Of a stretch of DNA of 64,000 bases, positions 940 to 26,725 are shown in pieces. The stretch is from Euglena gracilis (lineage: Eukaryota), in NCBI GenBank assembly GCA_039621445.1, contig CP154954.1, forward strand, positions 49,393,847-49,457,846, written 5' to 3'. A model generated the notes under the pieces. That model saw only the letters and a list, made by a program, of their open reading frames with translations. It did not search any database and was not told the DNA's origin. Position 1 is the first letter of the stretch, and each line of letters opens with the position of its first letter. The position numbers and the translations under genes were made by a program.

Positions 940-3900
940 TTATGGCCGGACAATTCGCCCCGTCCAGGCATTCCCGAATGTTGCTCACGGAACAGGGATC
1001 GGGGCCACGCCCTGCTTAGCCACTGCCTGGCCCCTGCAAGGAGCGGAGGCTGGCCAAGTCCTGCGGAGTGAGGGCCTCCGCGAACGCCTGCTGGATGCGG
1101 TGGACCTCCGCCAGGAGGGCGCTGCCAGGCTGGCCACTGCGTTGGGGCCTGGCCGCATGGGAGACCTCAAAGCGCGGGGGGCTGCCGGCCCTGCTGCCCC
1201 CCCCGGGTTCTTTCTTAATCAGGCGACCACGGTGTGACCACGGCGTGACTGCGGTGTGACTGCGGTGTGACCACGGCGTGACTGCGGTGTGACCACGGTG
1301 TGACTGCGGTGTGACCACGGCGTGACTGCGGTGTGACTGCGGTGTGACCACGGCGTGACTGCGGTGTGACCACGGCGTGACTGCGGTGTGACCACGGCGT
1401 GACTGCGGTGTGACTGCGGTGTGACCACGGCGTGACTGCGGTGTGACTGCGGTGTGACCATGGTGTGACCACGACGTGACTGCAGTGTGCCCATGGCGTG
1501 ACCATGGTGTGACCACGACGTGACTGCGGTGTGCCCATGGCGTGACCATGGTGTGACCACGACGTGACTGCGGTGTGACCATGGTGTGACCACGACGTGA
1601 CTGCGGTGTGACCACTGTGTGACTGTGGTGTGACCACGGCGTGACTGCGGTGTGACCATCGACAGTGCAACTCACACAGGCATTCATTGCTGGCCGGGCC
1701 CCGGCACGGGCGAGGAGGAAGACCTCCTGGAGGGCGCGGCCCACGTCCTGGGCGGTGTCGTCCTCGTCCATGCGGCGGATCTGGTACATCCACTCGTCGT
1801 CGGTCTTGCACCCGCCGCGCTGCTCCACCGGCTCCCAGAAGAGGACGTCGCGGTACCACAGGCGTGGGGAGCACCGGAAGCCGTACTTCACCTGTCGGGG
1901 GGGGGGGTCGGTGAGGTGGTGGCGGTCAGCCCATCGGTGGTGGCCGATGGGCGATGGCGTGCACCCCAATACCAGCACATTTTGGTTCCGGACAGCTTCT
2001 CACACTTCCTCTTTGTGGAAATATCACGAACAAAATATGGGGTGGGGCTCTGATACCATCCCACCAGCCCATCCTCTGGCTTTTTTTTTCTCGACTGACA
2101 CTTCCAATTAAGATCATTAATTCAGATCCGCGGAAAGATCCCATAATGAAGAATATGAGTGTGACACACCTCAAAAATCCTCCTAATCTAGGCAAAAAAA
2201 AACCAGGAGAGTTTGAGATGTGAATCGCTAGGGCACACACACACACACACACACACACGCGCGCGCGCGCGCGCACACACGCACACACACACACACACAC
2301 ACACACACACACACACACACACACACACACACACACACACACACACACACACACACACACACACACACACACACACACACACACACACACACACACACAC
2401 ACACACACACACACACACACACACAACGCCCTTCCCCCACACCCAAATACCCCCTCGGGGTCTTCTGCAGGGTCATTATCCGAACTTGGATTTGGTGGAA
2501 TGGCACCATTCAGTTTGGTGGAAATTTCCTGATAGGCTACTCAGGGGAATTGGGGGGGGGGAGCGTTGGGTCGTTTGAAATGAGGGGGTGGACGTGGCCG
2601 CCACACCTCTTGCTGCAACGCACTGGACAGGAGGATGGTGCAGCCCAGCGGCAAGGCCACCTCCCGCACCACCACCTCCACCGCGTTGGTCACCTCCGGG
2701 CCCCCCACCACCAAGCACCTATGACAGATTCCAAATTTTAGCCCGCGGCCGACTGCGGTCGGCCGCGGTCGGCTACGGTCGGCTGCGGTCGGCTGCGGTC
2801 GGCTGCGGTCGGCAGCGGTAGGCAAAGTAGTTGGCTGTAGGTGGGGGGGGGCAGGCCAACAAAAAATGAGCATATATCACAATCACACAATCCACTGTTG
2901 CCGACTTTTGGCCACTTTTCGCTGCTTTTGGCCAGTTTTTGATGCTTTTGGACTGTTTCACTGTTGCTTTTGGTCGATTTTTGCTGCCTTTGCCCATTAT
3001 TTCCTGCCTTTTGCTTTCTTTTGGTCACTTTTGTTGCTTTTGCCCACTTTTTGCTGGGCTTTGGCTGCTTTTGGCCAGCTTTTGCTTTGCTTTGACCTCT
3101 TTTGACCACTTTTGGCCTCTTTAACCCACTTTTGACCACTTTTCTCTGCTGTTGGCCATTTTCACCCACTTCTGGCCACTTTCAGGCCACTTTAAACGTC
3201 TTTTTGTTGCTTTTGACACCAAGAGCAGTCAAACGTGACCTAAAAATGGCCTAAAAGTGGCAAAAAAAATGGTTAAAATGGCCAAAAGTTCCAAAAGCAG
3301 GCAAAAATAACAAAAAAAATGCCCAAAGTGGTCCAAAAAAGCCAAAAAATGGCCCAAAATGACCCTGCTTTTGGCCAATTTGGGTCATTTAGCAGCTTTT
3401 GTTCACTTTGGCAACAAACTGGCACAAAATGCTCAAAATGGTCAAATTGGACCAAAAAGAGACCAACAAATGGGCAAAAATAACAAAAGAAAAGGCCGAA
3501 AATGGCTTTAAATGGTCAAAAATGGCTCAAAATGGCCCAAAATGGCCCAAGAGCAGGACAAAATGGCCCAAAATTACAAGAAGTGGGCAAAAAGTGGCCA
3601 AAAAATGTCAAAATAGGTCCAAATGGGTGAATTATGGTGACAAATGGGCCAAAAATGGACAAAAGCGCCAAAAATGGCCAAAAGTGGCCAAAAGTGGCCA
3701 AAAATGACAACATGAGCCAGATGAGCCATAAAAAAATCAACACATCTGGGATAAAAATGAGCCTAATTCCTCATTCTCACTGAAAAATTGACATCAATTA
3801 GAAAAAAAGTTGCGCGGTCGGCTGCGGTCGGCTGCGGTCGGCATAGGTGCCTGCCCACCACGAAGAACCGCTGCCCCGCCGCGCTCACCGTGGCAACGGT

Positions 3901-26725: not shown

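Follow-up and report, generated by a model that had tools for sequence, protein, structure and literature searches.

The nonconventional introns of a gene in a 64,000-nucleotide stretch of the Euglena gracilis genome (contig CP154954.1, positions 49,393,847 to 49,457,846; the window) have terminal inverted-repeat arms, and the eight nucleotides directly outside the two arms resemble each other well beyond chance. The gene, here called gene 1, encodes a PstS/PBP-like membrane protein. One of its introns is composed of an element with inverted-repeat ends and one copy of an 8-bp duplication, and a sister copy of this element lies free elsewhere in the window. A transposon origin for at least part of these introns is well supported. 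A sizeable fraction of the nonconventional introns are probably former exon insertions of short non-autonomous DNA transposons that make an 8-bp target-site duplication (TSD), and are removed together with one TSD copy. An initial annotation of the window had proposed such an origin. The observation on which it was based is real and well above chance in gene 1, and its interpretation as a transposon plus one duplication copy, which appears right in its core, is partly supported.

The clearest case is intron 30 of gene 1, which is described here in the register that places three nucleotides (N3) before and five nucleotides (N5) after the terminal helix. Its element is named A. The free element, named B, came from a scan in which inverted repeats were paired with the 8-mers flanking them. 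The features are as follows.

2707–3856, minus strand: intron 30 of gene 1 in the N3/N5 register, 1150 nucleotides, consisting of element A and a single copy of the 8-bp duplication
2712–3853, unstranded: element A, 1142 bp, terminal inverted repeat CAAGCACCTATG / CATAGGTGCCTG
2704–2711, unstranded: copy 1 of the element A duplication, CCCACCAC on the plus strand and GTGGTGGG on the gene strand, coding
3854–3861, unstranded: copy 2 of the element A duplication, identical to copy 1 (8/8)
50724–52240, unstranded: element B, 1517 bp, ends CAAGCACCTAT.../...TAGGTGCTTG
50716–50723, unstranded: left copy of the element B duplication, GCCGTGGA
52241–52248, unstranded: right copy of the element B duplication, GCCGTGGA, 8/8

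Element A contains 10-bp subterminal arrays of GCGGTCGGCT at both ends and AAAATGGCCA-type arrays internally. Element B contains 10-bp subterminal arrays of ATTTTCGGCC at both ends and, as in A, further short arrays inside. The two elements have a common 11-nucleotide end (CAAGCACCTAT), 10 out of 11 terminal pairs each, and perfect 8-bp duplications that differ in sequence. The motif CARGCACCTAT is present at the four ends of A and B and at one other site with one mismatch. The same ends and the same build next to different perfect 8-mers are a classical mark of transposition. Element B is located inside intron 21 of the Mpp10 gene (gene 2) and therefore is not itself an exon-splitting intron, nor is it annotated as an intron. 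The expectation that introns and free elements would have sequence families in common is borne out by this pair, in which intron 30 (A) and the free B share ends and architecture. Free MITEs (miniature transposable elements bounded by inverted repeats) with CAGG...CCTG ends had also been described. One clean free element (50724–52240) is present rather than several, and its ends are CAAG...CTTG.

Under the proposed origin, a non-autonomous transposon with terminal inverted repeats would insert into a coding exon and produce an 8-bp TSD. The inverted repeats would pair in the pre-mRNA to form the terminal helix, from which the excision machinery would measure three nucleotides outward on the 5' side and five on the 3' side, and cut there. 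Because 3 + 5 equals the duplication length, this cut would remove the element and exactly one copy of the 8-mer, and the reading frame would therefore be restored from the first day of the insertion. For intron 30 the frame is restored in this way, as the initial annotation had predicted: removal leaves TTC GTG GTG GGG GGC, which reads F V V G G and matches the transcript protein. The intronic halves of the duplication would then drift with age, which may be the reason that only some introns still show it. Both the transposition event and this gradual decay are what we infer from the geometry, the repeats, and the A/B pair.

According to a review, nonconventional introns leave the transcript without the spliceosome and later than the conventional ones, and once excised they appear as full-length circles rather than lariats (PMC11282704). 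These circular intron RNAs would be consistent with excision by an endonuclease and a ligase. The excision factor might have been recruited from the transposon or have co-evolved with it. A stronger form of the proposal holds that the 3 + 5 ruler and the 8-bp duplication of CAG-ended (hAT-like) transposons are matched, that every new insertion into an exon is born as a perfectly excised intron, and that this live intron-generating system explains the nonconventional majority of Euglena introns. This stronger form is possible, but we regard it as rather doubtful.

Gene 1 was modelled by spliced dynamic programming of the EG_transcript_328 protein (P0001) against the minus strand. The EG_transcript identifiers belong to what we take to be the Euglena gracilis transcriptome, an origin with which the composition, the (CA)n arrays, and the type of intron are consistent.

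668–26725, minus strand: gene 1, PstS/PBP-like membrane protein (EG_transcript_328), 34 exons and 33 introns; PF12849, E 3.7e-23
23553–25228, minus strand: intron 3, conventional GT-AG, without a terminal helix

EG_transcript_328 is a 1192-amino-acid protein with a PBP_like_2 domain. Exon 1 (26725–26531, minus strand) is 100% identical to its first 65 residues (eukprot). The alignment has no gaps, 1160 of 1192 identical residues, and 33 introns between 26535 and 724. The transcript protein and the genomic exons differ at 32 of the 1192 residues (for example, at 6087–7323 and 12794–12859), and the RNA contig runs described below disagree among themselves at several exon positions. These differences suggest alleles, paralogues, or strain differences.

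A GT/GC-AG reading is possible for 5 of the 33 introns (introns 3, 17, 18, 23, and 31), of which intron 18 is GC-AG with a pyrimidine tract. The remaining 28 are nonconventional. The initial annotation had counted about 30 of 34 introns without GT/GC-AG; the gene is indeed mostly nonconventional, and the counts are replaced by 28 of 33 in the spliced alignment.

Predicted junctions were compared with RNA over 2430–22429 using two RNA-like contig runs, one raw RNA run (from four chosen by species label), and one DNA run. The contig runs are two of 19 that contain 7–9% of the words of a stretch that is about one-tenth exon; no record labels them RNA. The comparison covers the joints listed (15 of 1374), and the other junctions, including those of introns 1–6 and 31–33, are taken from the transcript-derived protein. 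Among the joints listed, agreement was found at every comparable joint or contig piece. The RNA skips 7364–7565 (202 nucleotides, zero positional ambiguity, 22 raw reads), 7638/7641–7812/7815 (175 nucleotides, 3 nucleotides of ambiguity), and 19793–20566 (772 nucleotides). A single RNA contig joins 5424–5551, 6057–6202, and 7178–7363, giving introns of 505 and 975 nucleotides. Intron 30 shows its junction through a loose end, in which the RNA contig letters past 2719 equal plus strand 3870–3880.

Two other genes in the window were modelled in the same way as gene 1. The first seven "introns" of gene 2 and intron 1 of gene 3 were excluded before counting for poor alignment of the flanking exons or a register that is not protein-equivalent.

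50327–61270, minus strand: gene 2, Mpp10 (EG_transcript_3775), well-aligned part; 14 trusted introns, 12 of them nonconventional
30207–34195, minus strand: gene 3, an 85% identical relative of P0004; of its 7 introns, 5 entered the counts
57597–57788, minus strand: Mpp10 intron 14, arms CAGGGCCGAACGGGAA / its complement; 8-mers GGGAGGGC / GGGACGGC, 7/8

In the minimum-free-energy fold of Mpp10 intron 14 (57585–57800, minus strand), UCGCUG of the upstream exon also pairs with CGGCGA just past the 3' junction, outside the N3/N5 spacers.

Direct repeats and synonymous codons allow several registers for each intron. All protein-equivalent registers were listed, and the geometry giving a helix was sought among them. 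An uninterrupted helix of at least 5 pairs is found exactly at +4/−6, that is, with three nucleotides before and five after, in 18 of the 28 gene 1 introns. This is the N3-[stem]...[stem]-N5 form that had been claimed from the sequence. Helices of at least 5 pairs occur at spacers of 3 + 4 and 2 + 5 in 0 of 28 introns, at 3 + 6 in three, and at 4 + 5 in one; spacer sums of 7 or 9 therefore account for 0–3 of 28. The minimum-free-energy folds of two short introns contain the terminal helix. Intron 25 cannot slide, and its junction is fixed by the RNA reads.

7364–7565, minus strand: intron 25, non-slidable; N3 = GAC, helix GGGGGGCG/TGCCCCCC, N5 = ACGCC; 8-mers 2/8

Across the 45 nonconventional introns of the three genes, the helix begins with CAG in 19 and with CDG in 23. 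The first base of the element is C in 30 and G in 6. The N3 spacer prefers G (35/45) and C (35/45), and the next exon begins with a purine in 43. Over the first 12 helix positions the mismatches include 22 G:U and 27 A:C. Because G:U is not enriched over A:C, a decaying DNA repeat fits the deeper helix better than an RNA-selected stem.

The repeats outside the helix were examined by anchoring each intron on its helix and comparing the 8 nucleotides before the 5' arm with the 8 nucleotides after the 3' arm. The left 8-mer is composed of five exon and three intron bases, and the right 8-mer of five intron and three exon bases. An intact message does not by itself require the two to be identical. 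The null was obtained by combining the left 8-mer of one intron with the right 8-mer of another, with the position-specific composition kept (50000 permutations), and eight introns readable as GT/GC-AG were excluded from the counts. The best-matching introns in gene 1, in addition to intron 30, are listed below.

25729–26530, minus strand: intron 1, GAG-CAGGC...GCCTG-GCCTT; 8-mers GCCTCGAG / GCCTTGAG, 7/8
22939–23488, minus strand: intron 4, arms CACACATCTCTT / AAGAGATGTATG; 8-mers CCACCAAC / CCCCCAAC, 7/8
19093–19759, minus strand: intron 9, 11-bp arms CTTCTTTTTAA set 4 nucleotides further in; 8-mers GCGACAAC / GCAACAAC, 7/8
4918–5375, minus strand: intron 28, CAGGCCG / CGGTCTG; 8-mers GCGGCGGG / GCGGTGGG, 7/8; absent from the pairs quoted in the initial annotation

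Gene 1 has matches at 123 of 224 positions, compared with 79.2 (sd 6.7) under the null, and none of the 50000 permutations reaches 123. Eight of the 28 introns match at 6/8 or better, as do 17 of 756 null pairs. The four 8-mer pairs that had been quoted are present at their given places with 8/8, 7/8, 7/8, and 7/8 matches. The accompanying statement of 6/8 in several others and 3–4/8 in some is correct for three introns at 6/8; 5375–4918 is to be added at 7/8, and the remaining introns range from 2/8 to 5/8. When the three genes are pooled (45 introns), 185 of 360 positions match against 130.9 expected, with z 6.7.

The excess is spread over all eight positions. From −8 to −1 the matches out of 45 are 19, 17, 16, 28, 22, 29, 21, and 33, and the expectations are 13.8, 14.6, 12.2, 16.1, 14.1, 23.2, 13.1, and 23.9, respectively. 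It ends at the helix edge (position 0: 10 vs 10.9 expected) and at −9 (11 vs 13.2). The 8-nucleotide windows adjoining either side give z 1.4 and 1.3, which is not significant, and two other neighbouring windows give z 0.0 and −0.7. The outer three positions (−8 to −6) are the weakest of the eight. In introns with at least four of the five inner positions matching (n = 16), these outer positions match at 25 of 48, compared with 44 of 144 control positions (Fisher p = 0.009). The direct repeat is best described as 8 nucleotides long and flush with the inverted repeat, with a left edge that rests on modest numbers.

The likeness of the 8-mers could in principle be explained with no insertion history, as a product of splice-signal preference (G-S-C before the helix and R-R-C starting the next exon) and of GC-rich coding composition. 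The position preferences given above, namely G and C in N3 (35/45 each) and the exon purine (43/45), do lift the null identity to approximately 36%. The null keeps this position-specific composition, however, and the observed identity still lies 6.7 standard deviations above it. Flanking windows of similar composition show no excess, and a consensus cannot give rise to 8/8 and 7/8 pairs whose sequences are unrelated. This explanation is hardly credible.

The sharp edge of the repeat also bears on break repair, in which filler DNA would be captured at a staggered break without transposition. The strain-specific new intron 4 of E. agilis gapC has eight-nucleotide direct repeats that were attributed to break repair in 2016 (PMC4770533). 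The same source treats Daphnia likewise and credits euglenids with high break-rejoining activity. Break repair predicts neither a fixed 8-nucleotide length flush with inverted repeats nor a pair such as A and B, and it does not account for the drop in excess identity at the helix edge, from 33/45 at −1 to 10/45 at position 0. As a general account of the introns described here it is quite improbable.

Several results weigh against the proposed origin. The 8-mer excess replicates weakly in genes 2 and 3, where 62 of 136 positions match against 53.0 expected (2124 of 50000 permutations, p approximately 0.04), so that the comparison with shuffled controls, clear in gene 1, is marginal there. Only 1 of 17 introns in these two genes matches at 6/8 or better (one at 7/8). 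Over the three genes, 36 of 45 introns match at 5/8 or fewer and are individually indistinguishable from the null. For introns 10, 13, and 22 of gene 1, N3/N6 (sum 9) is a better fit than N3/N5. The helix arms are very diverse between introns, and no single end that a transposase could recognise is evident beyond CAG; because the arm sequences differ so widely, the introns are not one family. When the 28 intron elements were searched against the window with blastn, the matches were short internal repeats, with no common ends and no full-length similarity between introns. Leaving A and B aside, inverted repeats with flanking 8-mers were not clearly enriched over offset controls in the scan of the whole window. 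Its tail at 7/8 or better contains 6 candidates vs 1 at the offset control, too few for enrichment, and relaxed thresholds give approximately the control level. No family other than A/B is seen twice in the 64 kb, and no transposase was identified among the nine long open reading frames (ORFs) of the window (no Pfam match). Neither an empty site nor a presence/absence polymorphism was observed; none of the DNA joints listed skips an intron, which is uninformative on presence and absence.

The serious rival is accordingly one of degree. It holds that only a few elements, namely the A/B family and perhaps other introns at 6/8 or better, are transposon-born and happened to fit a pre-existing splicing code, and that the bulk of the introns arose in other ways, for example by conversion of conventional introns or by old routes. 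The sum of 3 + 5 = 8 would then act merely as a filter on which transposons are tolerated. The many introns at 5/8 or below, the single well-matched intron of genes 2 and 3, and the diversity of the arms all favour this rival, and intron-type conversion is discussed in PMC3935182. With the four quoted introns, which are the best, removed from gene 1, 94 of 192 positions still match against 68.3 expected (3 of 50000 permutations, z 4.3). The spread of the excess over all eight positions suggests graded decay rather than two classes, and exon-side constraint together with intron-side drift would erase old duplications anyway. A transposon-born minority is therefore unlikely to be the whole account, and the origin of a sizeable fraction by insertion is preferred.

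A few intron pairs share stretches of 9–13 nucleotides near their ends. Introns 1 and 24 (26527–26519 and 7812–7804) share CAGGCGTCT at the 5' ends of their elements, and introns 7 and 11 (21326–21314 and 18588–18576) share GGCCCCTTCTTTG at the same place. Where the duplications are well kept, the arms seem to be less GC-rich, and such introns may represent a younger family.

Other candidates for free elements were rejected. The candidate at 42620–43517 has an 8/8 flanking match, but its flanks continue the element, giving a direct duplication of approximately 0.9 kb. Within 42600–43540, the sequence past 43517 repeats that past 42620 and mimics an 8/8 target duplication. This direct duplication is overlapped by a 616-codon open frame (41997–43844, minus strand) with no Pfam match. 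The candidates at 21949–22756 and 35938–37081 are satellite or palindrome artefacts.

The superfamily of the intron elements can be considered from their ends and their duplication length. The hAT transposons have short terminal repeats starting with CA(G/A)G, a terminal motif YARNG, subterminal short repeats, and the target pattern nTnnnnAn. Ds, a non-autonomous hAT element, reportedly can act as an intron in maize, a result credited to Giroux et al. 1994. The intron elements resemble hAT elements such as Ds in the 8-bp duplication, the CA(G/A)G start of the short terminal repeats, and the subterminal short repeats. They begin with CAGGG, CAGGC, or CAAGC, and appear to differ from hAT in that the fifth end base is often C, not G. 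The nTnnnnAn pattern is not evident: the ten best 8-mers have T at position 2 in two cases and A at position 7 in three. The nine long ORFs include neither a recognisable hAT transposase nor a dimerisation domain. The hAT label is unproven, with the 8-bp length and the CAG-type ends as its sole basis. A length of 8 bp does not single out hAT, because Merlin transposons with 8–9-bp duplications and 5'-GG ends are reported in E. gracilis (PMC8101967). Merlin has the species and the 8-bp length in common with the intron elements. It differs in its ends, since A and B begin with CA rather than GG, and 30 of the 45 intron elements begin with C and only six with G. A hAT-like affiliation is possible, and Merlin and others with 8-bp duplications are also candidates.

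Further repeats were observed in the window. A separate element of 2.3 kb (35450–37775) has 40-nucleotide terminal inverted repeats that are 93% complementary, starts with ACTTAGGCGGCC, and is possibly flanked by the 3-bp repeat GGA. It is a different type of transposon from the intron elements. In the DNA run, the summed word depth is 10^4 to 2.6x10^5 at 2430–4430, 5765–7098, 10434–11767, and 13769–15769, compared with approximately 50 in single-copy bins. From this high depth over introns it follows that introns, conventional ones included, carry very high-copy short repeats, such as AAAATGGCCA-type 10-mers. Long (CA)n/(TG)n microsatellites are located inside introns at 2282–2425, 7950–8150, 12640–12720, 15637–15833, and 19230–19300. 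An AT-rich island with ATAAT/ATGAT-type simple repeats extends from 46000 to 48000, with a GC content of 0.40 vs approximately 0.55 elsewhere.

The origin of the euglenid nonconventional introns and the machinery that removes them are questions of about 30 years' standing. At this locus the MITE hypothesis gains its first concrete handles: an 8-bp duplication flush with the arms, its match to the 3- and 5-nucleotide spacers, and a family that contains both an intron and a free copy. The old question is thereby turned into searches that can be run on the genome, for shared families, empty sites, and a matching transposase. The eight-nucleotide repeat at the new E. agilis intron can be re-read as a target duplication. 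If the match between spacers and duplication is causal, Euglena would tolerate exonic transposon hits because its second splicing system removes them precisely. The result gives a published hypothesis a concrete family of elements and a duplication whose length has been measured, and is unlikely to surprise specialists greatly.

The introns described here are ordinary members of the euglenid nonconventional class. They share its lack of GT-AG, helix at +4/−6, CAG/CTG preference, purine at the start of the next exon, and slidable junctions, and no difference was found. The noncanonical code 5'-N3-CDG...CH'G-N5-6|R is defined for euglenid introns (Nomura et al. 2025, PMC12501133; Milanowski et al. 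2014 and 2016). Knock-in experiments showed the spacers of 3 and 5 nucleotides; splicing is lost when the 5' spacer is altered by one base, and +1 is tolerated in the 3' spacer (PMC12501133). CDG is at the helix start in 61.2% of E. agilis introns, and direct repeats are noted to make 84.4% of introns slidable. The accessible text of that source sets slidable introns aside and does not relate the repeats to a duplication length (PMC12501133).

A MITE origin of nonconventional introns was proposed in 2014 (PMC3935182). Terminal inverted repeats, CAG/CTG at +4..6/−8..−6, and "TSD-like" repeats are described in a 2024 review (PMC11282704, Fig. 3D legend). The N3/N5 code, the MITE origin, the TSD-like repeats, and an eight-nucleotide repeat at a new intron are thus already published, and the novelty attached to them in the initial annotation falls away. 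Like the present results, the MITE hypothesis, the TSD-like repeats, and the gapC intron point to a transposon through inverted and direct repeats, with eight nucleotides at the new intron. In the accessible parts of those sources, no repeat length is tied to 3 + 5 and no free copy shares the ends of an intron. The literature searched, with supplements and subscription papers outside it, contained neither the equality of spacer sum and duplication length, nor a measured 8-nucleotide box, nor a free copy sharing intron ends, and no printed link of nonconventional introns to an 8-bp duplication or to hAT.

A close known system outside the euglenids is that of the introner elements of Micromonas and Aureococcus (Huff, Zilberman, and Roy 2016, as told in PMC11282704), in which the element plus a duplication is spliced out. 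Introners are likewise DNA transposons; they have inverted repeats and target duplications and turn into introns when they insert, and removal of the element with part or one copy of the duplication restores the message. They differ in forming near-identical multi-copy families, in having 3-bp duplications in M. pusilla, and in being removed by the spliceosome at GT/GC-AG sites that they bring along or co-opt. The Euglena introns, in contrast, have diverse ends, an 8-bp duplication, and a non-GT-AG removal measured from the helix.

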